From: Chlorobiota bacterium
GTDB taxonomy: Bacteria; Bacteroidota; Ignavibacteria; Kapaibacteriales; UBA2268
Direction of reading: 5' to 3'
Length of the DNA: 64,000 bases
Assembly: GCA_034670025.1 (NCBI GenBank)
Contig: JAXMOE010000001.1
Location: forward strand, 229,889 to 293,888
Shown here: positions 17,647-49,811 of the stretch, piece by piece
Layout of the letters: the number at the start of each line of letters is the position of its first letter
How positions within the stretch are numbered: position 1 is the first letter of the stretch
Program-made: the position numbers and the translations under genes
Notes under the pieces: generated by a model
Told to the model about the DNA's origin: nothing
What the model saw: the letters and a program-made list of their open reading frames with translations, nothing else
The model's database searches: none

Positions 17647-18777
17647 TCAAAAGTTTTTCTTATTAAATTCTATTACTTCTTCAATTTCCTCTGCACTCAT
17701 TTTATTGATATAATGTTTTGATTGAGTTTGTATTGTATGACCAATTAATGAACGTACAACATTATCATTTAGAGTATAATCATTCATCATTTCATTTTCA
17801 ACTAACTTTCTTATTGCATGAAATTTTACTTCTTCTACGTTTTTTATTCCTAACATTTTCCTATAGTTATTAATATGCACTCCCATAATTCTTGACGTTT
17901 GGAGATTAAGCAAATTACTACTCTTAGAAAAACTCTTTTCATTAAACTCTAAGGCTTCTTTTAATAATGGTTCTAATTCAGGTCTAATGGAATAAGGGAA
18001 CTCTCTCCATGTATTATTTTTTCCGTCAATTAATAGTTTTTTAGGTTTGATGTGCCAAGGTTGCATCTTATATACTTCCCCAATCCGCATTCCTGTTATA
18101 CCAATAACTCTTAATACAAAATAAAGTTTAGTTGCTGACATTTTACTTTTGGGCTTACTACAATTGTCAATGTATTTACTTAACTCATGAACATATTTAT
18201 TTAGTTGATTCCTTGAACAAATTGTGAATTTGAATTTAGCTTTTTTAATTTTAATCCAAGGTTTAACAGGATTTGTTGTAATAATGTCAGATTCAATCCC
18301 AAATTTGAATATGGATCTCAATCGCTGAATAGAGGTGTTTATAGTTAAGTCCGAATAATTTTCTATCTCCTTCATTTCAAGAGCTCTTCTATTGACAAAT
18401 TTCGTGATTTCAACCATGTTGTCTAAATAAAAGTCATTATTATCGACAATCCTTTTGATAGAATTAAGAAAAGTTTCTTTAGTATTATCTTGTATGTGCT
18501 GAAACTTTAACTCTTTATATAGCAGAAACAGCTCAGAAAACTTATCAACTCTATTAGTATTAAATCCATTCTCACGATTGTAATATTCGCGAACTCTTTT
18601 ATCTAAGACTTGTATAGCAAAATCTTTGTTAGTTTTCTTCCAAGGTAAGTTCTTTATTGATTTCCTGTCACCAAATACATAGGTGTGGACATATCCATCC
18701 CTCTCAAAACAATAGACACCTTTTCTGTGATCAGGGTGATCCCATCGTCTTCCTTTCTTTTTTCTAGTCTTTCCCAT
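17647..18777 (-). CDS. tyrosine-type site-specific integrase
   Basis: 376 aa. C-terminal catalytic region (R...HAIRK...LIGHT...KHYI) typical of the phage integrase family, with an N-terminal SAM-like domain. Confidence 0.85.
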   Translation of the reverse strand: MGKTRKKKGRRWDHPDHRKGVYCFERDGYVHTYVFGDRKSIKNLPWKKTNKDFAIQVLDKRVREYYNRENGFNTNRVDKFSELFLLYKELKFQHIQDNTKETFLNSIKRIVDNNDFYLDNMVEITKFVNRRALEMKEIENYSDLTINTSIQRLRSIFKFGIESDIITTNPVKPWIKIKKAKFKFTICSRNQLNKYVHELSKYIDNCSKPKSKMSATKLYFVLRVIGITGMRIGEVYKMQPWHIKPKKLLIDGKNNTWREFPYSIRPELEPLLKEALEFNEKSFSKSSNLLNLQTSRIMGVHINNYRKMLGIKNVEEVKFHAIRKLVENEMMNDYTLNDNVVRSLIGHTIQTQSKHYINKMSAEEIEEVIEFNKKNF

Positions 18778-19174
18778 GGTTAGTTCTTTCTTTCAATTTT
18801 TCAGCAAATAATATTATAAATTCGTGTGACTCTTTCTCTTTTATTCGGGAGTTATCGGCTGTAAAAAAAGATAGTAATGTATTCAGTGTATCAGGGAACC
18901 AGTTGAAATCATTCAATAATTCTGGCATAGCAAAATGCCTCTCGATATATGAGAGAGTTGGGAATATAATAGAGCTATCTATCTTGCATTCCTCTAGAGT
19001 ATATAGTTCAAGTTGACAGAATTTATAGAATTTGTCAGCGTGTTCAAAAAGTGATGAGTACTCTATCAACACCTGATCAACATCCTTATCAGTGTTTGAC
19101 AGTACAATTCTTTCAGCAATTCTTAAACATCGAACTCTGAGTCTAATATTAATTTTGTTTTCTGACTGGAGCAA
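18764..19174 (-). CDS. hypothetical protein (between repressor and integrase, overlapping both)
   Basis: 136-aa ORF. The 14-nt and 26-nt overlaps suggest a co-transcribed leftward lysogeny operon. Confidence 0.45.
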   Translation of the reverse strand: MLQSENKINIRLRVRCLRIAERIVLSNTDKDVDQVLIEYSSLFEHADKFYKFCQLELYTLEECKIDSSIIFPTLSYIERHFAMPELLNDFNWFPDTLNTLLSFFTADNSRIKEKESHEFIILFAEKLKERTNHGKD

Positions 19175-19895
19175 AATCTTTAATCACTTTTTTAACAATA
19201 CCAAATATCTTAAAATCTTCTAAGTCACCAAGCTCTATATCTTCAGCATTCTTCGAATCTGACTTTAATAGGATGCTTCCATCCTTTTGATGACACAAGT
19301 GTTTCACAATTGGCATTCCATTTAAGGACCCCACAATTGTACAATCATAACTTGGTTTGCTGTTATAGACTTCAAATATAATTATATCACCCGAAGTCAG
19401 ACCAGCATCTTCCATTGAGTCACCATTTACATAGATTGCATCGTGTGAATCTTCATCTATATTCATACCTAAAGCTAACGGCATATATGTAGTTGGCAAA
19501 TCATTCAAATCAGTTAACGTCCCAGTCGCTGCACTTGCACTCATAATATGCAACTTAATATTTGCGAGCATCCCTTGAAATTGTTTTGGAACTCTATACA
19601 ACTCATCTTTCTTATCTGCAATGTAATCCTCATTTTTCTCTTTAGTCTTAATAGAACTTTTGCTAAGAGCCTCTTTATTAAATGGCTCACCTATTCCGTG
19701 TAAGTACCATTCAATATTAATGCCAGTTTCAGCCAATCTCCTTAATGCCGATTTGTTCTGATAAACTCTATCAGTATTAATGTATGTGTTTATAGTACCA
19801 GGTGAGACGCCTAGTATCTTTGCAAAAACAGTAGGGCTATGATAATGTTCATCAATGAAATCTCTTAGCCTTGATTGTGGTGTATCGCTCATCAT
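19149..19895 (-). CDS. CI/LexA-like phage repressor (N-terminal HTH plus C-terminal S24 peptidase domain)
   Basis: HTH (VFAKILGVSPGTINTYI). S24 signature (VNGDSMEDAGLTSGDIIIFE) with a downstream Lys. Divergent from the rightward early genes. Confidence 0.8.
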   Translation of the reverse strand: MMSDTPQSRLRDFIDEHYHSPTVFAKILGVSPGTINTYINTDRVYQNKSALRRLAETGINIEWYLHGIGEPFNKEALSKSSIKTKEKNEDYIADKKDELYRVPKQFQGMLANIKLHIMSASAATGTLTDLNDLPTTYMPLALGMNIDEDSHDAIYVNGDSMEDAGLTSGDIIIFEVYNSKPSYDCTIVGSLNGMPIVKHLCHQKDGSILLKSDSKNAEDIELGDLEDFKIFGIVKKVIKDFAPVRKQN

Positions 19896-32644: not shown

Positions 32645-33391
32645 CTAGTCACAACATGATTCAATAGAATATAACTCGAGAACTTCATCTTGAGAAAGAA
32701 CTTTGTTAAAAAATGCAATGTCATCAATAGATCCATTAAAATACTTTCCAATTATTATATCACCACCATTAACTGGATTAATAACTTCTTGAGTTATACT
32801 AGTCTGTGTATCCATTAGTTTACCATTTTGATAGAGTGACATTGTTTTAATATCGAAGTCACATGTTGCAACTACGTGATACCATTGATTTAGCGAATTT
32901 TGATCAGAGTTGTCCCAAACAGAATGCATGTTATTAAAAAAGGTTACTTTATTTATATCATATACACCTAATGACATTACTCTATTTGTAGCAGGAGTTT
33001 TATTGTCTTTGTCACCTCTAGCAACTAGGACTTCATATTGTCCTTGATTATTGATAGTATGTTTATACCAAAGAGAAATAGAGTACTTTCTCAACCCATT
33101 TAAAAAATTAGGAGACGTCATGTACAGATAGTTTGGAGAAGTATCGCTAAATTTATAAGCACAATTTTCTCCACCCTCTCTACCTTCAGTTGGTTCCGCA
33201 TTGTTCTCATTAGTTAAATCATTACTAGACTTAAAATCCTCTATACTGGAATTACTAAAAGGGTAGTAGGCAATCAAATTATCTTCTAAAGAAGCTGGAA
33301 TACAAACTTTATTAGTTGGGTCAGTTCCATTATCTTCTTTCTTGCATGAGAAAGCTAGAAGTAGTATTATAGTTAGAAAAAAATATTTCAT
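32645..33391 (-). CDS. lipoprotein with LamG-like (concanavalin A-like lectin) domain
   Basis: Lipobox LLAFSC after the signal peptide. LWYKH...WYHVVATCD...LYQNGKL...FNGSIDDIAFFNKVLSQDEV is a LamG jelly-roll signature. Confidence 0.65.
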   Translation of the reverse strand: MKYFFLTIILLLAFSCKKEDNGTDPTNKVCIPASLEDNLIAYYPFSNSSIEDFKSSNDLTNENNAEPTEGREGGENCAYKFSDTSPNYLYMTSPNFLNGLRKYSISLWYKHTINNQGQYEVLVARGDKDNKTPATNRVMSLGVYDINKVTFFNNMHSVWDNSDQNSLNQWYHVVATCDFDIKTMSLYQNGKLMDTQTSITQEVINPVNGGDIIIGKYFNGSIDDIAFFNKVLSQDEVLELYSIESCCD

Positions 33392-33590
33392 TTGAATCCT
33401 TCATGTATGTTAAAAAATGTATTAGAATAAACACAAAACTAGTAGTTTAGTTACATTTTATATCGAGTTTATAAATCTGATAACTTCTCTTTATGTTTAC
33501 TAAATACGTCCGACTGCATCGCTCCCTTATTAAAAGCTCATAAATTCTTAAAATATTGATATACTTTACTTTAAAATCTGATAGAAGTTA

Positions 33591-35579
33591 TTAAGACTTT
33601 ACTACTTCTTTCAGCACTTCACTTAAGTCCATTAAAGTAAAAGGTTTGGGGATAAAGTGTGTTAGTCCAATCTTATTCAAATCTGATATGTCTTTACTCT
33701 CGGTAAAACCAGAAGTAACAATTATATTTATTTCACTATTTAGCTCTTTCAGCTTTTTATAGCATTCTTTACCGTTCATTTGTGGCATAATCATATCTAG
33801 AATAACTAGGTCAATTTCATCAGATTTACTTTTAAATAACTCAATTCCTTTTATCCCATCTTCAGCAAGTAATACTTTAAACCCTAGCTTTTCTAAAAGT
33901 ATTTTTGTCGTTACTCTGATTATTTCTTCATCATCTATTACTAGAATGGTTTGATTTCCAGCTATTAATTCATTATTGTTATTTACTTCACTATCTAATT
34001 TAGCATTCTCAGATAAAGGTAATAGTACATTGAATGTAGTACCTATGTTTAATTCACTATATACAACTATCTCACCACAATGCTCCTTAACAGCCCCTTG
34101 CACTGATGACAACCCTAAACCTGTACCTTTACCTCTTTGCTTAGTTGTAAAAAAGGGATCGAATACTTTTTTAGCTACTTCTTTTGTCATGCCGTGGCCT
34201 GTGTCATTGATAGAGATAAGAACATAATGACCTGGCTCAACGTTTAAATATGAATGTTCTAAATCTTGCTTAGAATAAAATTTAGACTTTGTTGCAATGC
34301 TCAATGTGCCTCCATTTGGCATCGCGTCAAAAGCATTAATAAAAAGGTTAATAAAAATGTTCTGTATTTGAGATTTATCCCCTTTTATAATGAAATCATT
34401 ATCTGAAACTTTAAAATCAAAAATTATATTTTTATTAATTCGACTAGAAACTAATTCAAGAGAAACGTTGATTTCATCAATCAAATTTAATTCTATAGAT
34501 TGGAACTTACCTTTTCTTGAGTAATCAAGTAATTTTTTAATTAATTCTGCGGCTCTATTACTCGCATTTTCTATGATACCTAAAGCTTTCAATGAATGTT
34601 TATTAAGACCTTCATCGTACTTCATTAATTCAACAGAATTAAGAATACCAGTTAGAACATTATTAAAATCGTGAGCAACTCCTCCTGCTAACAATCCAAC
34701 CGCTTCCATTTTCACTTTTTGAGCTAACTGTGCCTCAATTTCTTTCCTCTTTGTTATATTGTTTATCTTAATAATAACATCATGTTTAACATCCGCCTCC
34801 ATTGGAAAAACTTTTACTTCATAAAAATTTAGTTTATTATTCTTTGTAGCCTGTTCTTCGAATGAAAAAGTAGTATTGTTTTTTATACATTCTTGGATTC
34901 TAATTTTATGATCTTTTAATAAATCAAAATAATTGAATAAATATTTTCCTAAAACTTCTTTATCGTCATTTTTTGTTAATAATCTTCTACCAAACTTGTT
35001 TATTAATGTAATTTCAAATTGGTCATTAATCCCAATTAATGTCGATGGCATTGAATTAATTACACCTTCTAAATACATAGTTAATCTTTCCACTTCGTTT
35101 TGATTCTTAAGTTCTTCTGTTACATCTCTTAAAACTGCAAAGCTCATTCTTTCATTTAACAGTATTGCGGATAGTTTCATATTTAATATTTTACCAGATT
35201 TATGAATAAATTCATAGTCAACTTCATCTAGGTACTTTTGTTCATAAAAAAGTGGTAATATTTCACTAATAGCTTTTTCTTTACTTTTTGTTGTTAAAAA
35301 ATCAGTAGATTTCTTACCAATAACCTCATGTTGTTCGTATCCTAGACCCTTTAACCAATAGTCACTAACATCAATTATATGACCCGACTCATTTATTGAA
35401 TGAAAAATTGCAGGGATTTTCTTCAACACATCAAATTGTTTAGAATTTTCTACACTAGAACATTCATCAAGCTCATTTGATAAAATTTCAAAAACAGTTT
35501 TTGAAATAGCTTCGTCGTCAAAAAGAATTTTAATCTTTTCCTTAAAAGTATTTATTGTTCCGTTGTCCATAATTCTCAA
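33591..35579 (-). CDS. hybrid sensor histidine kinase/response regulator with PAS domains
   Basis: H-box AHDFNNVL, ATPase N/G boxes (DTGHGM, GTGLGL), C-terminal receiver (LVIDDEEIIR...DLVILDMIMP). Confidence 0.85.
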   Translation of the reverse strand: MRIMDNGTINTFKEKIKILFDDEAISKTVFEILSNELDECSSVENSKQFDVLKKIPAIFHSINESGHIIDVSDYWLKGLGYEQHEVIGKKSTDFLTTKSKEKAISEILPLFYEQKYLDEVDYEFIHKSGKILNMKLSAILLNERMSFAVLRDVTEELKNQNEVERLTMYLEGVINSMPSTLIGINDQFEITLINKFGRRLLTKNDDKEVLGKYLFNYFDLLKDHKIRIQECIKNNTTFSFEEQATKNNKLNFYEVKVFPMEADVKHDVIIKINNITKRKEIEAQLAQKVKMEAVGLLAGGVAHDFNNVLTGILNSVELMKYDEGLNKHSLKALGIIENASNRAAELIKKLLDYSRKGKFQSIELNLIDEINVSLELVSSRINKNIIFDFKVSDNDFIIKGDKSQIQNIFINLFINAFDAMPNGGTLSIATKSKFYSKQDLEHSYLNVEPGHYVLISINDTGHGMTKEVAKKVFDPFFTTKQRGKGTGLGLSSVQGAVKEHCGEIVVYSELNIGTTFNVLLPLSENAKLDSEVNNNNELIAGNQTILVIDDEEIIRVTTKILLEKLGFKVLLAEDGIKGIELFKSKSDEIDLVILDMIMPQMNGKECYKKLKELNSEINIIVTSGFTESKDISDLNKIGLTHFIPKPFTLMDLSEVLKEVVKS

Positions 35580-36106: not shown

Positions 36107-36304
36107 ATGAAAAGAGAAGAAATTTGCAAAATATTAAATAGAATTGATGAAACTAGTAGTATTGACTTAAATGATGATCTTGAATATAAATTTTACAAAG
36201 TCTATAACGGTTTGCTTTTTATAGAAACATTTCCATTAACAAAAAACCATAGTAGTATATTAAGACTCACTAACAGAGGTAAAGAATTAATTAGGCATAA
36301 CTAA
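36107..36304 (+). CDS. hypothetical small protein
   Basis: 65-aa ORF in an AT-rich region. Confidence 0.25.
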   Translation: MKREEICKILNRIDETSSIDLNDDLEYKFYKVYNGLLFIETFPLTKNHSSILRLTNRGKELIRHN

Positions 36305-36556: not shown

Positions 36557-36661
36557 TTTCAACTTGCTCTGTTCTAAAACAACTCTTGTAGCACAGCAAA
36601 GTTAAATAAAACGAGATTATAATTCAAGATATTTGTCAATATCTATTCAGTTAGCTATATT

Positions 36662-37198
36662 GTGTTTCTACTTAACTACTATGGGAAATCAAACTTGAAA
36701 ACTTTACTATTAATTTTATCTACTGTAATACTTCTTTCATGCTCCAATGATGACAAATCGACTACTGAACCTACTGTCCAAGGTAATCTTTACTGTTCAG
36801 ATGTTGACATTATGCCTGACGGCTTAGAAGACACTTACGTAAGAATAGTTGGTGTGCTGCCGAACCCAGATGGTGATGATGACTATAATGAACAGTTTAG
36901 AGTGAAGTCATTCTTACTAGATAGTAATGTTGATATTGGGAGTTACTATATTCTTGATGATGAGGATGTAAGATGGGATCTCGATGAGTTGGAGTCCTCT
37001 ATTGATTACATTGAGACTGATAATTGTAGAACGATAACTTACACCTCTGACAAAGTAGCTCAACTACTTAATTCTGGTGATGTGATTTATCTTTATAATA
37101 AGGATGAAGTTCTCATTCAGACTGTTTCTTTTGGGGCTGTTGGGTCTGGGGAGTGGGTGGATTTCTTTTATAATTATTCAGTGATTCCGGGTGCATAA
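36662..37198 (+). CDS. lipoprotein, possibly lamin-tail-domain (LTD)-like
   Basis: Lipobox ILLSCSNDD. YVRIVGVLPNP...GSYYILDDED pattern resembles LTD (EFVEL-N-P...DLSGW-L). Confidence 0.4.
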   Translation: MFLLNYYGKSNLKTLLLILSTVILLSCSNDDKSTTEPTVQGNLYCSDVDIMPDGLEDTYVRIVGVLPNPDGDDDYNEQFRVKSFLLDSNVDIGSYYILDDEDVRWDLDELESSIDYIETDNCRTITYTSDKVAQLLNSGDVIYLYNKDEVLIQTVSFGAVGSGEWVDFFYNYSVIPGA

Positions 37199-37213
37199 AT
37201 TAAGAGGTTTAAA

Positions 37214-37438
37214 ATGAGAAATATAAGTAAAGAAAATCTAGTTAAATATTTGAAAGAGATTGACGAGAAAGGTCAATTTGCAGCTGACACTATAGAGAAA
37301 AGAGTGTTTTTAAATACAGGGTTCAAGTATTTTAACAGTAAAGACTTTGAAAAATCAACAGCTTTTCATGGTGCTGAATACCAAGGGGGATTGTCTTTAA
37401 CGGAATATGGTAAAAGTATATTAGAAGAAAGTGATTAA
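37214..37438 (+). CDS. hypothetical protein (first gene of a three-gene AT-rich operon)
   Basis: 74-aa ORF, 15 bp after the lipoprotein gene. Confidence 0.4.
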   Translation: MRNISKENLVKYLKEIDEKGQFAADTIEKRVFLNTGFKYFNSKDFEKSTAFHGAEYQGGLSLTEYGKSILEESD

Positions 37439-37453
37439 ACCTAGTTAGATTTT

Positions 37454-37936
37454 ATGATGTTAACTGATAAAAATGTTGAAACCCTATTAAATTCTCCTAA
37501 AAAATTAAACTTATTTTTTGAGGATTTATTTCAAAAACCCAAGCAAAAATTCGGTCACACTGAATTTGAATTTGATTTTTTTGATGAAAGTGATATTAAG
37601 TTTGGTTTAAAGCTAAGAATTAATAATTCAAATAAATCAAATTTTTCAGCTATTTTAGGCTTTTATTCAGATGGTAATAATTATAATATTCTTACTAGAT
37701 ATAATGGTAATTCTCATTGGCATAAAAACTTACTACACAATTCACCTGATTTCAAAGATTTTCACATTCATATCGTCAAAGAAGAATATGTACAAAGCCC
37801 CAAAATACGTAGAAATGAAAGTTATGCAGAACCTACCGATAGATATGACAATTTTAGATCTGCTACTATTTGTTTAATTAAGGATTGTAATATAACTTTG
37901 AAAGGTGAAATCGAACCAGAACTATTTAATGAGTAA
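37454..37936 (+). CDS. hypothetical protein (160 aa), His-rich motifs HWHKN / HIHIV
   Basis: ORF overlapped at its 3' end by the next gene. Confidence 0.45.
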   Translation: MMLTDKNVETLLNSPKKLNLFFEDLFQKPKQKFGHTEFEFDFFDESDIKFGLKLRINNSNKSNFSAILGFYSDGNNYNILTRYNGNSHWHKNLLHNSPDFKDFHIHIVKEEYVQSPKIRRNESYAEPTDRYDNFRSATICLIKDCNITLKGEIEPELFNE

Positions 37937-38729
37937 AAGTCTTAACATATTAAAATCTATAAGAGAAAATATTTCATCTGAAATTGAGATTATAAGTGAT
38001 GGCGTAGATAGCTATGAAGTCATTACTCCGTTCTATTTTGATGATGGGGATATGTATACTATTAGACTTGAAAAGTCAACCTTTAATAACTGGTATTTCA
38101 CTGACGAAGGAAATACATTTATGCGATTAAGCTACGAAATGGATGTAAATAATCTGACTAAAGAAGGTAGAAGATTTGAAATTGTTAATTCAGTTGTTAA
38201 TTCACTAGATATTCAAAACTCTGATGGAGAATTAATATCAAATGTACAAAATGAGGAATATGGTAAATCATTATATAATTTGATTCAATGTATAACTAGA
38301 ATTAATGACATATCTTTTTTAAGTAGAGAGAATGTTAAATCTACTTTTATTGAAGATTTTAAATCTTTTATTAATAGTGAACTTAAGGATAAACACTTTG
38401 AATTTGATCATCATATACCTAAATATGATATTGGAAAGAAGTACCCTGTTGACTGCATGATAAACAGTGTCCCCAATAAGAAACCTCTTTTTCTTTTTGC
38501 AATAAATAGTGATAGTAAATGTAAAGATGTTACTATAAATATTCTTCAATATCAAAAGTGGGACATTGCTTTTAAACCAATTGCAATATTCGAAGACCAA
38601 ACTAATATCAGTAGAAACGTGCTTGCTAGATTCTCTGATGTTGGCGAAAAACAATATTCGAGCCTGTATTCAAACAAGGAAGGTTTAGCGAAACAATTTA
38701 AAGAATTTTATAACATTCAAAATTTTTAA
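37905..38729 (+). CDS. hypothetical protein (274 aa)
   Basis: ORF with a 32-nt overlap onto the preceding gene, consistent with an operon. Confidence 0.45.
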   Translation: MKSNQNYLMSKSLNILKSIRENISSEIEIISDGVDSYEVITPFYFDDGDMYTIRLEKSTFNNWYFTDEGNTFMRLSYEMDVNNLTKEGRRFEIVNSVVNSLDIQNSDGELISNVQNEEYGKSLYNLIQCITRINDISFLSRENVKSTFIEDFKSFINSELKDKHFEFDHHIPKYDIGKKYPVDCMINSVPNKKPLFLFAINSDSKCKDVTINILQYQKWDIAFKPIAIFEDQTNISRNVLARFSDVGEKQYSSLYSNKEGLAKQFKEFYNIQNF

Positions 38730-38920
38730 TTTTATGGTTCTTTAAACCATATAAAACCATCACATTAATTGCCATCTTTTTTGAACGATTATTACATTTT
38801 AAATCTCACAATAATTTGTAAATAATTTTCCAAGAACCACTCCATTTATTGCAACCCTTACCTACTAACCTCCAAAATCGGTAAATCTTACAAACTTATT
38901 CTCATTCTTTAATTTTACCC

Positions 38921-38962
38921 TATAAAAAAAAAGCCCAACTATAAAAGTCAGGCTTTAGAATT
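38921..38962 (-). terminator. probable intrinsic terminator for the minus-strand repeat-protein gene
   Basis: AAAGCC...GGCTTT stem followed (on the minus strand) by a T9 run. Confidence 0.4.
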
Positions 38963-38978
38963 AAAATCTAATTAAAAT

Positions 38979-40874
38979 TTACATTACAACTAAAGTTACC
39001 AATCCTGTTCCATCTAAAGTATTAGTCCCTGTACTTGTTGGATTATTTTGTATCTGTATTTTAAGTGTACCAGCAGTATTTGTAACAATAGTACCTATAA
39101 ATCTATAAGGCGTAGATAAAACAGAAGAATTTAAATCTTCAAAATTAGTTGCATCATAGCCAAAATCTCCATCAAAAAAACCAGAAGTAAAAGTACCAGT
39201 GTAGTTAATCCTAGTGTCAATTTTCCCAGATCCAGTTTCATTAACTTGGAAATAGCCAAAAAGTTGATATACGGTATTTGCAGCTAAAGTGAATTCAATT
39301 CCTGTATCTTGATATGTACTACTTAACGTTAAACTGTTAGGTGTATCAGTAGATGCTGTAGCTCCACCACCACCACCTGCAACTGTAGCCCAGCTTAAAT
39401 TAGTTCCATCAGTTGTTAAATATCTACCAGAATTACCTGATTGTGACGGTAAATTACCTTGCTTTCCATCTAACTGAGTTTGTACATTTGAAGTTACAGA
39501 ATTAATAAATTGAAGCTCAGTGCTTGTTACCGAACCGTCTGCTAATTTTGTTGCATCTATTGCAGCACCTGCTTTTATGTCTGAATTTTCAATATTTGTG
39601 ATAGTGTTATTATCTGCATCTATTGATTTATTTGTTAAAGTCTGTGTATCTGTACTACCAACTACGTCTCCCGTTGGTACTGCTTTAACTGCAGTTACTG
39701 CACTAGTTCCATTTCCCTGTAGAAAATTACCAGTTGCTAAAGTTGTTGCTCCTGTACCACCATTTGTAACTGACAAAGTTCCACTTACTGAGTTAGCATC
39801 TCCTAATGGCAATGAACCATAAACAGCAGCTGTTCCTGCTGTGCCACTTGAAAGTAATACTTGATTAGCAGTTGCTGAAGAGTTTACTTCTAAGTTAGTA
39901 GCATTTGATAAGATAGTGCTAGACCCACCTGCGTTTAATGTATTTGTAGCAAAAGATAAACCATTACCAGCTGTTATAGTTGCTTGTTTGCCGTCTAGTT
40001 GTGTTTGTACGTTTGAGGTTGTTGAATTAATATACTGAAGTTCAGTACTTGTTACAGATCCATCAGCTAACTTAGTCGCATCAATTCCAGCATTGGATTT
40101 AATATCTGCATTCTCAATATTAGTTATTGAGTTATTATCTGCATCTATTGATTTATTTGTTAAAGTCTGTGTTGCTGTTGTACCCACTAAATCCCCTGTA
40201 GGTAAACCAGTTGTGGCAGATAATAGACCTGAAGAATTTGCAGATACAATTCTATTGCCTGTGCCTGTTAGAGAACTTACAGTAACATTTGTGGGTGTCA
40301 ACGATAATGCATCTGTACTATTTACACTAATTACACCTGTATTTGCACTATAACTTAGCTCCATTTCTGTATTATTCAATTCTCCATTGTCTGGACCTAT
40401 GTGTAGGGTGCTACCGCCTACATAAACATCATCCCATCTGTTATCATCTGCTCCAATAGTACCGTTAAGTGTTTGTGGGTTAAAATTACCACTATTGTCT
40501 AACACCGTCGCTTCAGCCTGTATTAATATTAACTGGTCATATCTTTTTTGAGAAAATAATGTACCATTTACATAAATATCTAATAATGTAAATGTATTGA
40601 TTACAGAAGCATTAATTCCTGACCAGTCGCCTGTAGACCCACCCGCTGGGTAATCGTTTACGTTAACTATTACTATTCCATTATCGTTTGGTGCTAGACT
40701 GAAAGTCTCCCCTCTAAATAACAATGTATTACTGGTATAGTCTTTTAGTTCAATATAAACGTTCTGTGCAGCTGTGTTATTAGTGTAATAAGCTACTTTA
40801 GATGGCTCTAATCCATAAGATGTCAAAGAGCAAATAAGTAAGATTAGAACAGTTATAAGTTTGAATTGATTCAT
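38979..40874 (-). CDS. secreted tail-fibre-like repeat protein with signal peptide and two tandem ~140-aa repeats
   Basis: Signal peptide MNQFKLITVLILLICSLTSYG. Repeated block ...TQTLTNKSIDADNN(S/T)ITNIEN(A/S)DIK...IDATKLADGSVTSTELQ(Y/F)IN...NVQTQLDGKQ. G/T/S/N-rich. Confidence 0.6.
   Translation of the reverse strand: MNQFKLITVLILLICSLTSYGLEPSKVAYYTNNTAAQNVYIELKDYTSNTLLFRGETFSLAPNDNGIVIVNVNDYPAGGSTGDWSGINASVINTFTLLDIYVNGTLFSQKRYDQLILIQAEATVLDNSGNFNPQTLNGTIGADDNRWDDVYVGGSTLHIGPDNGELNNTEMELSYSANTGVISVNSTDALSLTPTNVTVSSLTGTGNRIVSANSSGLLSATTGLPTGDLVGTTATQTLTNKSIDADNNSITNIENADIKSNAGIDATKLADGSVTSTELQYINSTTSNVQTQLDGKQATITAGNGLSFATNTLNAGGSSTILSNATNLEVNSSATANQVLLSSGTAGTAAVYGSLPLGDANSVSGTLSVTNGGTGATTLATGNFLQGNGTSAVTAVKAVPTGDVVGSTDTQTLTNKSIDADNNTITNIENSDIKAGAAIDATKLADGSVTSTELQFINSVTSNVQTQLDGKQGNLPSQSGNSGRYLTTDGTNLSWATVAGGGGGATASTDTPNSLTLSSTYQDTGIEFTLAANTVYQLFGYFQVNETGSGKIDTRINYTGTFTSGFFDGDFGYDATNFEDLNSSVLSTPYRFIGTIVTNTAGTLKIQIQNNPTSTGTNTLDGTGLVTLVVM
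39470..40250. repeat. intragenic tandem DNA repeat (two ~260-bp copies about 520 bp apart)
   Basis: 40-bp identical core TATTATCTGCATCTATTGATTTATTTGTTAAAGTCTGTGT at 39613-39652 and 40131-40170, with about 75% identity in the flanks. Confidence 0.7.
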
Positions 40875-47376: not shown

Positions 47377-47806
47377 GCTTTACAACTTCCTCTTCTTCCA
47401 TTTGAAGTCTTCTCATTATTTCTTGTACCGGAACACCGCCTTTTATCATATCCCCAACAATCTTTGACATCTTAAAAACACCGTGAGTTCCTTTGGCTCT
47501 GTTGTGCCTAATGGTACTCATCTGCTGTGAAGTTAAATCTGTAGGGTTCGTAGTTGTAACAGGAATCTTACCACCATCCCTTTCTTTTATTCTCTTATCG
47601 TCCGATGCAAGCCAACGGTGATAACCATCAACAATCGTATTATCATTATTTTTTACTATTGGTTGAGTCCATCCGTCTTCCAGAATTGAAATTACTAATA
47701 GTTCAAAATCATATTTGGTCATAGAGTTTGGGTTGTAATTGTTTGGGTTTAATGTGTCTCGATCTACCCATTCAATATTATCTATTGGTTGTTTGAAATT
47801 ACTCAT
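47291..47806 (-). CDS. ParB-like nuclease domain protein (IbrB-like)
   Basis: DGYHRW motif of the ParB/Srx fold. 4-nt ATGA overlap with the upstream PAPS-reductase-like gene. Confidence 0.65.
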   Translation of the reverse strand: MSNFKQPIDNIEWVDRDTLNPNNYNPNSMTKYDFELLVISILEDGWTQPIVKNNDNTIVDGYHRWLASDDKRIKERDGGKIPVTTTNPTDLTSQQMSTIRHNRAKGTHGVFKMSKIVGDMIKGGVPVQEIMRRLQMEEEEVVKLGISEGIPKEKIIKDHSFSKAWGPDDKR

Positions 47807-48939
47807 TCTGTTACCTCAGGTTTCTTACCTTTCTTAAATTTCATTGTAGCTGACTTACGTTTTTTAAAGTCCCCTCTAATAGCACAGTCACATAAGAACT
47901 TCCAACTACAACCAGTCTCGTGATGCGGTTTGCTATCTGGGATTTTGTCATTAGTGTCCTTGTAGTGTAGTCTGATAGAGTCATTTATACCTTTCTGAAC
48001 TATTGACTTGTAAGGCTCTTCATATCCAGTCATTATTACCTCATAGTAATCTTCCCATTTGTCGTAAGCAGGAGGTAATACTTTTCCTGTATATAATCCA
48101 ACATTCGAGTACCTAAGGGCAGTTCTCGCTCCTCTTACTCTATCTTGCATCTTCCCCCAAAGTGCGTGGTCTATTAATTGGTATTCTCCAATCCCCCGAA
48201 GTGGCTCTTCACCAAAAGCATTACTTACTCTTTGTTTCAAGAACCTATTATGATAACCTGGTATCTTATCCAAAGCATCGTAATATCTATTATAATCCCA
48301 ATTGAATTTTTGAATCCCAGACCAAACATCTTCACTAGTCCAATCATAGACAGGGTGAGCTATATGAATATTCCCATATCGATGTGCAATGTAATTATCT
48401 GACTTCTTTCTAAGGACAGCCATTCTTCTTCTTAAACTTTCCTGAGCTCTAATTCCAGTTAGAAAGCAAACATTACCATTGAAGTCCTGATACATCTCAT
48501 CACAGAATTGTGGCATTGTTAGACCAGGTTTAAATCTTCTATGAGTTGTGATTGCATTTTCTGGCATATCTCTACACCATAACGGTTTCTTAGATGGTTC
48601 CCAAGGATACCACCACGGCTCATTATTACTACAAGCGTTTCTATGCTTAACAGGAATGCAATACCATTTGAAATCAATATCAGGATTGTTGGATATTCTT
48701 TCTACATACTCAATAGTCTGACTTGTAATTGCTTCTTCATCAATATATACAACCTCTAAGGGCAACTGCTTAAGCTCTTTTGCAACGACAAGAGCAAGGT
48801 TTAACACAACCGTAGAATCTTTTCCACCAGAAAAAGATACTACTACCTTGTCAAATCTATTGAAGCAATCTCTTATTCTTAGCCTTGATTCATCTAATAC
48901 ATTGGTTGTATAGACGATTTGCTTATGTGATAAACCCAT
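47803..48939 (-). CDS. PAPS reductase-like PP-loop ATPase (IbrA/DUF3440-like)
   Basis: PP-loop VVSFSGGKDSTV. C-terminal Cys cluster (CSWKFLCDC). Confidence 0.65.
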   Translation of the reverse strand: MGLSHKQIVYTTNVLDESRLRIRDCFNRFDKVVVSFSGGKDSTVVLNLALVVAKELKQLPLEVVYIDEEAITSQTIEYVERISNNPDIDFKWYCIPVKHRNACSNNEPWWYPWEPSKKPLWCRDMPENAITTHRRFKPGLTMPQFCDEMYQDFNGNVCFLTGIRAQESLRRRMAVLRKKSDNYIAHRYGNIHIAHPVYDWTSEDVWSGIQKFNWDYNRYYDALDKIPGYHNRFLKQRVSNAFGEEPLRGIGEYQLIDHALWGKMQDRVRGARTALRYSNVGLYTGKVLPPAYDKWEDYYEVIMTGYEEPYKSIVQKGINDSIRLHYKDTNDKIPDSKPHHETGCSWKFLCDCAIRGDFKKRKSATMKFKKGKKPEVTE

Positions 48940-49811
48940 TATCCTACCTCATCTAAAAATTGTTTAGCAGTTGTTATAAGTGTAGATGCAAATTCAACAG
49001 TCTTTGGCTCAAATTCATATATCTCAGCCCAAGTATGTTTAAATGTGTTGTCTTTAATATCTTGCGAATGTCTTTTACGTCTAGCCCAAGGGTGAGTGCC
49101 TAAATAGAATGGTCTTTTCAAGTTATAAAAAGGGGGCAACTCCAAATTGTAATAATGTATCAAAGCCAAAACTTCTTCATGCGACCAATCAGAAATAGGA
49201 GAGTATCTTGTTATTCCTTTAGCGTTAGTGTAAATATTACTACCACCTGTACCAACATAATTATTGTCCGCCGTCCTTCTTCCCAAAAGGATAATATCTA
49301 ATTCATATTCTTTAAAGTAAATATCCTGTGCTCTTTGTTGCACTTGTCTATACCATATAGAACCGTACTTAGAGTTATCAGGGAAAAGCATTTCAGGATG
49401 ATTAGATAACCATTCTAAGTCTTGTCCAGTGTTGATTATCGAAATATCCATTGGGGAATTAGAATTCAGCCAATCCAAAAAGAATGAATACTCAAGATTA
49501 GTCAAGCCAATCATAGATTTTTTAATACCAACAATATCAGTTATGTACTTCAATGTAATTGAGTCTTTCCCACCGCTCCAAGCAATGGCTACGTTCTTAT
49601 CATGAACAATTCTTATCATTTCATTTGCAGTTTCTTCAATTCTCCTATCAATATGGTCTTTGCTAACAAACTCTTGAGGGTTGTTGAACACCGCTAAGAA
49701 TTTATCTCTTTCGTCTTGTGACTTCAATTGGGCTTTCCTTGGTAATACTTTTCTATTCATATCACACCGTCCTAATGTCTTTAAGGTTCTTAGCAGATAC
49801 ACCATTGACAA
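48939..49811 (-). CDS. PAPS reductase-like PP-loop ATPase (second copy)
   Basis: PP-loop IAWSGGKDSIT. Confidence 0.6.
   Translation of the reverse strand: MSMVYLLRTLKTLGRCDMNRKVLPRKAQLKSQDERDKFLAVFNNPQEFVSKDHIDRRIEETANEMIRIVHDKNVAIAWSGGKDSITLKYITDIVGIKKSMIGLTNLEYSFFLDWLNSNSPMDISIINTGQDLEWLSNHPEMLFPDNSKYGSIWYRQVQQRAQDIYFKEYELDIILLGRRTADNNYVGTGGSNIYTNAKGITRYSPISDWSHEEVLALIHYYNLELPPFYNLKRPFYLGTHPWARRKRHSQDIKDNTFKHTWAEIYEFEPKTVEFASTLITTAKQFLDEVG

Follow-up and report, generated by a model that had tools for sequence, protein, structure and literature searches.

The AT-rich part of a prophage carried by a Chlorobiota bacterium contains three short, consecutive open reading frames of 74, 160 and 274 amino acids, for which a first-pass annotation had proposed an undescribed three-gene defence or toxin-antitoxin-like system. 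The locus raises the question of whether these genes belong together, whether they are related to anything already catalogued and what their products could do. The window, as the term is used here, is the whole stretch of 64,000 nucleotides that was analyzed, and all coordinates refer to it unless another contig is named.

Gene organization of the locus

The features considered in the following sections are:

36662-37198, + strand: lipoprotein gene; signal peptide ending in the lipobox LLSC; first gene of the co-directional run
37214-37438, + strand: g1; 74 amino acids, no assigned function; placed by synteny in the phage/mobile element backbone
37454-37936, + strand: g2; 160 amino acids, histidine-rich, divergent DUF6978 / PDC-M24A-like; upstream partner of the pair
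37905-38729, + strand: longest open reading frame of g3; 274 amino acids, GTG start
37929-38729, + strand: g3; 266 amino acids, two domains, ATG start; predicted nuclease effector
37414-38731, no strand assigned: cargo cassette between synteny breakpoints; last ~8 codons of g1, the spacer, g2 and g3
38732-38930, no strand assigned: right anchor of the cargo slot; conserved, non-coding, ~78% identity to 8340-8550 of contig L084
38930-38956, - strand: terminator-like hairpin, belonging to the convergent gene of a 631-amino acid fibre-like protein

The three open reading frames are present and co-directional, as had been described, and are real genes, since each of g1, g2 and g3 has a database entry with the exact sequence, g3 has numerous homologues, and g1 and g2 showed low dN/dS values (0.10-0.16 and 0.19, respectively) relative to the diverged metagenomic copies in contigs L145 and L084, at dS of ~0.4-1.0. 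A word-indexed search retrieved 141 homologues of g3 with 38-50% identity, and at least 550 species-representative genomes, drawn from many phyla, contain a relative. The family of g2 was found by exhaustive HMMER search, the word-indexed search having returned g2 itself alone.

The start of g3 is almost certainly the ATG at 37929, giving a protein of 266 amino acids, because public gene calls use this codon and the N-termini of the homologues align there. The overlap between the last two genes, previously read as 32 nt, is therefore 8 nt (ATGAGTAA). For the lipoprotein gene, the true start is probably a TTG located ~14 codons inside the open reading frame. The gap between this gene and g1 is 15 nt (37198 to 37214), equal to the gap between g1 and g2, and the co-directional run thus consists of four genes and begins at the lipoprotein gene: the tight, operon-like spacing holds, although it is not limited to three genes.

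On the + strand, the best match to a sigma-70-like site is found at 36633-36661, ahead of the lipoprotein gene. Around the locus, sigma-70-type promoter sites were as frequent as in shuffled sequence, and the transcription unit was therefore delimited from gene spacing alone. Within it, the lipoprotein gene and g1 probably do no more than supply a promoter and read-through transcription to g2 and g3. No boundary repeats above chance were found in this AT-rich sequence; an 18-nt inverted repeat brackets g2, of which an estimated ~1 is expected by chance. Rfam gave no match at the locus, the right anchor at 38732-38930 included.

The variable slot of the prophage and the position of g1

Analysis of the surrounding genes confirmed the prophage location. 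The prophage starts with an integrase (17647-18777) and an adjoining S24 repressor (19149-19895), continues with AAA_24, SMC-like and ResIII helicase genes, and with genes for TerL, a Mu-type portal, Mu F, Mu G and major capsid E, and extends past the end of the window. The atypical composition was also borne out, with a GC content of 0.28 at the locus, and of 0.27-0.29 in the AT-rich accessory region in which the cassette sits, compared to ~0.35 elsewhere. The S24 repressor gene is ~17 kb away from g2 and g3, which instead follow the backbone formed by the lipoprotein gene and g1; the other neighbour of the cassette is the fibre-like gene.

The family of g1 comprises four proteins, with only three relatives of g1 among 5.8 billion clusters, and g1 had no match in Pfam, PADLOC, NCBIfam, PHROG or PDB. 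Searches with g1 and with the right-flank DNA returned no further relatives of the backbone in viral or metagenome contigs. A relationship of g1 to the nearby open reading frame of 65 amino acids at 36107-36304 was considered and rejected, as the two have no similarity despite a similar C-terminal pattern. A homologue of g1 with 86% identity is found in phage- or mobile element-like contigs that encode an S24 repressor, an excisionase-type HTH protein and Prim-Pol/VapE. In these contigs a homologue of the lipoprotein gene is followed by the g1 homologue, with no g2-g3 thereafter, and the g1 homologues in contigs L084-L087 and L144 precede unrelated cargo.

Alignment with L084 located the borders of the exchanged segment. 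The region of the lipoprotein gene and g1 (36749-37413) shares 77% DNA identity with L084 (6543-7200), the homology decays at ~37413, inside the 3' end of g1, and it resumes at 38732, 3 nt past the stop codon of g3, from where 38732-38871 aligns to L084 at 78%. Between these left and right anchors L084 holds two unrelated genes on the minus strand, while in L144, where the g1 homologue is more distant, the slot is occupied by a convergent Fic/DOC gene. The shared flanks and differing content therefore define a cassette of ~37414-38731 and assign g1 and the lipoprotein gene to the backbone. By this comparison of sequences, g1 is a phage or mobile element backbone gene outside the g2-g3 module, and the g2-g3 cassette is accessory cargo in a variable slot of a temperate, Mu-head-type prophage.

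A genuine three-gene system, in which g1 is functional, for instance as a lineage-specific small regulator or adaptor, would agree with the 15-nt spacing between g1 and g2 and with the adjacency of both genes in L145, a short and diverged contig with a similar spacer in which g1 is 88% and g2 81% identical to those of the window. The arrangement in L145, however, probably traces back to a single insertion shared with the window and thus does not represent independent evidence for an association of g1 with g2. In addition, no g1-related gene was found upstream of g2 in any of the 115 other loci carrying the pair, the closest homologues of g1 precede unrelated cargo, and synteny with L084 breaks off within the 3' end of g1. 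We regard this three-gene arrangement as highly improbable.

Linkage and co-divergence of g2 and g3

The pairing of g2 and g3 was evaluated from both sides. With g3 as anchor, an intact g2 homologue lay directly upstream on the same strand in 68 of 82 loci from genomes and metagenomes, and frameshifted, truncated or contig-cut g2 remnants were present in ~8 more, for a total of ~76/82. With g2 as anchor, g3 was directly downstream in 54 of 55 viral contigs, the sole exception being cut by the contig end. The junctions of the two genes usually show an overlap of 1-14 nt or a gap of a few nucleotides. Pairwise divergences of g2 and g3 were strongly correlated (mirror-tree r = 0.90, Mantel p ≤ 0.001), and mean divergence was equal for both proteins (0.59). 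This reciprocal linkage and co-divergence indicate that g2-g3 is a co-inherited unit, and the pair is a conserved, translationally coupled two-gene unit. The co-occurrence of the three genes that the first-pass annotation suggested examining therefore holds for g2 and g3, while g1 does not travel with them.

In ~6-9 of the 82 loci, g3 is alone and intact without an intact g2, so that g2 is not universally required. These loci bear on the possibility, raised earlier, that g2 and g3 make up a toxin-antitoxin or addiction module, in which g3 would be a nuclease toxin and the smaller upstream g2 its antitoxin, or the reverse, and which would stabilise the prophage or mobile element. At nine loci where g2 is missing or truncated to a remnant of ~30 amino acids, g3 retains its family-conserved sites with 0-2 deviations; loss of an essential antitoxin should be lethal, and the persistence of intact g3 thus disfavours this role for g2. 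No HTH, RHH, AbrB or other DNA-binding antitoxin-type domain was detected in g2. Conversely, g2 was never seen without g3 in the 55 g2-anchored loci and is therefore unlikely to be a free-standing toxin. The pair hence departs from type II modules, in which the toxin is not kept intact alone and the antitoxin has a DNA-binding domain, and the toxin-antitoxin interpretation is a poor fit that we consider distinctly unlikely. Since many toxin-antitoxin systems also act in defence, it overlaps in part with the defence function favoured below.

Domain architecture and conserved residues of g3

The remote homology searches and structure predictions that had been recommended for these proteins yielded families for both g2 and g3, in place of the absence of recognisable motifs reported before. 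In g3, DUF1828 (PF08861) was detected at residues 41-133 of the 274-amino acid open reading frame with 76.7 bits (E 1.7e-21), above the gathering threshold of 22 bits. The predicted structure of g3 (pLDDT 90.3) has two domains: an N-terminal DUF1828 domain (~residues 1-135) with a predicted fold like those of type III secretion system (T3SS) chaperones and YbjN, and a C-terminal domain (~residues 138-266) with a predicted PD-(D/E)xK restriction-endonuclease-like fold, in which the alpha-beta-beta-beta-alpha-beta core of that superfamily is found. Sequence-profile searches of the PDB with full-length g3, its C-terminal domain, g2 and g1 returned chance-level matches only.

Conservation of g3 across both clades is concentrated in the N-terminal domain, where P34, D39-G40-D41, D59, T63, M65, Y69, G80, R82, G100, Q120 and D127 are conserved. 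In the nuclease fold, the conserved positions are S138, F140, E/D142-D143, Y172, D175, P186, K197, R199, T202-I203 and R234, and among them E142/D143 (alpha-1), D175 (beta-2) and K197 (after beta-3) are candidate catalytic residues kept across clades; E222 and Q224 are conserved solely within the close clade. A canonical (D/E)xK on beta-3 was not identifiable in g3, with no consistent acid two residues before K197. The pattern of residues is compatible with a PD-(D/E)xK site that would take its second acid from helix alpha-1. The g3 of the window has two deviations at family-conserved positions, both conservative.

The g2 protein

For g2, the match to DUF6978 (PF22398) reached 24.7 bits (E 3.2e-5) and remained below the gathering threshold of 29.6 bits, with an alignment that spans the model over its full length (residues 3-147 versus 1-133 of 133). 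DUF6978 was matched at E ≤ 0.001 by 24 of the 44 aligned relatives of g2. The protein is accordingly best described, as far as profile scores indicate, as a divergent DUF6978 relative rather than a curated member. Conserved residues of g2 are K16, R55, R82, N84, G85, H88, H90, N92, H104, H106 and Y112, and the histidine motifs HWHKN and HIHIV already pointed out in g2 correspond to the most conserved motifs of the family, RYNGxSHxHxN and FHIHxATxRYQ. The fold of g2 was confidently modelled and is compact, without a solved structural relative. The four invariant histidines suggest a candidate metal or ligand site. Two known histidine motifs were rejected for g2: the spacing of R82 and H88 fits an HEPN Rx4-6H motif, but this region is strand and loop, not helix, and an HIT HxHxH motif is contradicted by the presence of only two histidines and the lack of a fold match.

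The g2 of the window departs from the family consensus more than any other of the 105 members, with seven deviations at positions that are at least 85% conserved, and VKEEYV replaces ATxRYQ. These deviations, together with the very AT-rich composition, are what would be expected of a decaying, non-functional remnant. On the other hand, the open reading frames of g2 and g3 are both full length, g2 retains the four core histidines as well as R82, N84, G85, N92 and Y112, and g3 has its conservative deviations only. The VKEEYV motif is identical in L145 despite a dS of ~0.5 and under purifying selection (dN/dS 0.19), and it therefore represents a lineage variant and not decay. A decayed copy is thus very improbable.

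Relationship to PDC-M24 and to other known systems

Comparison with PADLOC models revealed that the pair is not undescribed but already catalogued, there as PDC-M24 and in Pfam as the families given above. The g3 protein matched two PDC-M24B models, PDLC04539 (E 6.8e-21, residues 23-158) and PDLC04540 (E 7.6e-12, residues 37-234), while the matches of g2 to PDC-M24A were weak (PDLC04537, E 0.008; PDLC04538, E 0.085). At E ≤ 0.001, g2 does not match PDC-M24A, nor do 41 of its 44 aligned relatives, the remaining 3/44 giving a match. As PDC-M24A was thus matched by 3/44 and DUF6978 by 24/44, the window carries a divergent clade of the PDC-M24 kind. The order of A followed by B, adjacent and co-directional, is that of the window. 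Common membership in DUF6978 and the same architecture give indirect support to the homology of g2 and PDC-M24A.

[quoted passage not shown] The likeness of the pair to PDC-M24 consists in a small DUF6978-type A protein followed by a B protein of ~255 amino acids with an N-terminal DUF1828, as in g2-g3, and in loci that adjoin or sit within type I restriction-modification loci. It differs in that the g2 of the window belongs to a divergent clade largely missed by the PADLOC A models, and PDC-M24 itself is a prediction. The earlier proposal of a defence system is therefore supported by the independent nomination of the family as a phage-defence candidate, although neither as a three-gene nor as an undescribed system. 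The literature searched contained no function, experiment, mechanism or structure for PDC-M24 and no functional mention of DUF6978 or DUF1828, both of which appeared in unrelated omics lists only; DUF1829 appeared only for DS-6B, the HipA-partner protein of DefensePredictor.

Similarities in architecture to other systems were also found. In Shedu (SduA), a single-protein defence nuclease, a C-terminal PD-(D/E)xK nuclease is controlled by an N-terminal regulatory domain, and g3 likewise joins an N-terminal non-catalytic domain to a C-terminal domain of restriction-endonuclease fold. Unlike Shedu, g3 has no match to the PADLOC Shedu models, carries a T3SS-chaperone-like N-terminus and has a second, obligate partner gene, g2. 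With the type II restriction endonucleases PspGI, NgoMIV, Cfr10I, AgeI and BsaWI, g3 shares 5-14% identity and no profile-level sequence match; it adds DUF1828 and a partner protein, mapping of the catalytic motif gave no canonical site, and the cassette lacks a cognate methyltransferase. Indeed, 37414-38731 holds only g2 and g3 and no methyltransferase, and so is not a restriction-modification system. The N-terminal domain of g3 is 3-12% identical to class I T3SS chaperones (CesT, SicP, SpcU) and YbjN/DUF2170-like proteins, from which it differs by its fusion to a nuclease-fold domain and by the invariant acidic residues DGD, D59 and D127.

Genomic contexts of the pair

The pair also occurs in complete temperate phages. 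Pseudomonas phages 5399, phita81A and 5371 encode a g2 relative of 172 amino acids (hhalign probability 99.8%) and a g3 relative of 258 amino acids, whose genes overlap by 4 nt and lie just downstream of cI on the same strand. In 19 viral contigs, the upstream same-strand neighbour of the pair is a gene for an HTH+S24 (cI-type) repressor. In phage lambda, the region just downstream of the repressor holds genes that are expressed in the lysogen and exclude other phages. The position of the pair in the Pseudomonas phages and the 19 viral contigs, directly downstream of and co-directional with a cI-type repressor, resembles that of RexAB, from which it differs in that neither protein is related to RexA or RexB in sequence or fold and that neither is a membrane protein. 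In bacterial genomes, the pair is often outside any recognisable prophage, and its immediate chromosomal neighbours include, in raw neighbour counts, the endonuclease, methyltransferase and specificity subunits of type I restriction-modification systems as well as mad2 and mad5 of MADS. The methyltransferases seen at other loci belong to surrounding type I or IIG systems.

These contexts allow a second view, namely that the pair serves the phage itself, either as a nuclease for DNA processing or recombination, together with an accessory factor, or in counter-defence or host takeover. Its presence in complete temperate phage genomes and in 55 viral contigs, and the existence of PHROG families for both g2 and g3, are in agreement with such a role. 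Many phage nucleases have restriction-endonuclease-like folds of the PD-(D/E)xK superfamily, so that the fold of g3 also fits. However, the pair sits with cI in the lysogeny module and not in replication or recombination modules, bacterial copies are often found away from recognisable prophages and next to type I restriction-modification or MADS genes, and in a related element the pair is dispensable, being swapped for unrelated cargo. A function in the phage's own cycle is accordingly considered unlikely.

Proposed function of the g2-g3 cassette

The interpretation that we favour, with confidence slightly on the positive side, is that g2-g3 is a defence cassette expressed during lysogeny and based on a nuclease, in which g3 acts as the effector and g2 is its obligate partner. 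It draws on the reciprocal linkage and co-divergence of the two genes, the assignment to PDC-M24 and to the DUF families, the restriction-modification, MADS and cI contexts, the behaviour of the pair as cargo of a slot, and purifying selection. Counterpoints are the lack of a canonical (D/E)xK motif, the most deviant g2 of the family, the failure of the PDC-M24A models and the loci with g3 alone.

We infer from these data an anti-phage function, a nuclease activity of g3, a physical interaction of g2 with g3 and an assignment of the sensing role, as follows. The cassette would most likely shield the lysogen from mobile DNA or from other phages. With the stop codon of g2 and the start codon of g3 overlapping by 8 nt, a single transcript may yield both proteins in coupled amounts. 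As the effector, g3 would cut nucleic acid with its C-terminal restriction-endonuclease-fold domain, by means of the candidate residues E142/D143, D175 and K197, and the DUF1828 domain, where conservation of g3 is strongest, may act as a protein-binding or regulatory module. The g2 protein, as the obligate partner, would sense the trigger or gate the nuclease of g3, possibly through binding of a metal or ligand by the histidine cluster.

A bolder version of this model, which we put forward tentatively and with considerable doubt, is that the pair constitutes a genuine and very widespread two-protein immune system, spread over many phyla and temperate phages and operating by a new principle. 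The histidine cluster of g2 would sense infection or bind a metal or small-molecule signal and thereby license the nuclease of g3, whose T3SS-chaperone-like domain would capture a phage protein or g2, and the lineage of the window would be a distinct specificity variant marked by VKEEYV and kept by purifying selection.

Significance

For the window, the result is mostly clarifying: in place of a novel three-gene system, the locus holds a divergent version of an already catalogued candidate pair and, next to it, a backbone gene unrelated to the pair. Since a large and divergent A-component clade goes undetected by the current PADLOC models, the distribution of the family is under-counted. The present analysis supplies a two-gene unit without a third component, the candidate catalytic residues D143, D175 and K197 of g3, a confidently modelled fold of g2 with four invariant histidines and no solved relative, and evidence from nature for the exchange of the pair as cargo of prophage slots and lysogeny operons. 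Should g2-g3 prove to be a functional defence system, PDC-M24 would thus turn from a database candidate into a mechanistically framed target.

Cargo slot behind g1

The slot that follows the backbone gene g1, occupied by the g2-g3 pair in the window, holds other genes in two related elements with g1 homologues (L084 and L144). The features concerned are as follows.

Window 38732-38930, non-coding stretch directly 3' of g3, approximately 78% conserved with L084 8340-8550
L084 7240-8189, minus strand, pair of genes of 188 and 127 aa, alternative occupant of the slot after g1
L144 371-1096, minus strand, gene with a Fic/DOC domain, alternative occupant of the slot after g1

L084, which carries different cargo, shares the stretch 3' of g3 at this level of conservation. 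An Rfam search returned no match for this stretch, which may anchor recombination at the cargo slot. The 188-aa and 127-aa pair gave no match in a Pfam search and may represent another candidate accessory or defence module.

Other genes of the window prophage

Further genes of the prophage were recorded at the following positions.

32645-33391, minus strand, LamG-domain protein, AT-rich accessory region
33591-35579, minus strand, hybrid PAS-HisKA-HATPase-REC sensor kinase, AT-rich accessory region
38979-40874, minus strand, 631-aa fibre-like protein
47803-49811, minus strand, a PAPS_reduct and DUF3440 protein with a second PAPS_reduct protein, adjoining the terminase genes

The LamG protein and the hybrid sensor kinase (32645-35579) are atypical phage cargo. 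The fibre-like protein showed only a weak PHROG virion-structural match. A segment of about 110 aa is duplicated within it, so that TQTLTNKSIDADNNxITNIEN...QTQLDGKQ is present twice. The PAPS_reduct and DUF3440 protein is presumably IbrA-like, and the two PAPS_reduct proteins may form a module for DNA modification or prophage activation.

Sequence features of g2

At residues 104-114 of g2 (window 37763-37795), the window lineage has FHIHIVKEEYV, whereas the near-universal motif of the family is FHIHxATxRYQ. The same variant is kept identically in g2 of the diverged contig L145, at 81% overall identity to window g2. The gene is also flanked, from its start codon to just past its stop, by the arms of an inverted repeat.

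Window 37446-37463 and 37942-37959, 18-nt inverted repeat, 89% complementary

By our estimate, about one such 18-nt pair is expected by chance in this 2.6 kb of AT-rich sequence.

Genomic context of g3 homologues

Directly downstream of the g3 homologue, and convergent with it, a DUF488 protein (291 aa) was found in three Balneolaceae-type loci.

L002 6949-8554, DUF488 protein and the protein beside it
L003 4066-5814, DUF488 protein and the protein beside it
L011 5135-6010, DUF488 protein

In L002 and L003, a 235-283-aa protein of unknown function lies beside it, and DUF488 was counted near g3 homologues in 4 loci. Solitary g3 homologues, with the conserved positions intact and unrelated genes alongside, occur in L028, L041, L044, L064, L067, and L069; their neighbours include a DUF499 ATPase, a RecQ-like helicase (called by eye), and a Helicase_C-domain protein, SNF2-type in appearance. 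The g3 protein may be able to work without g2 or paired with other partners.
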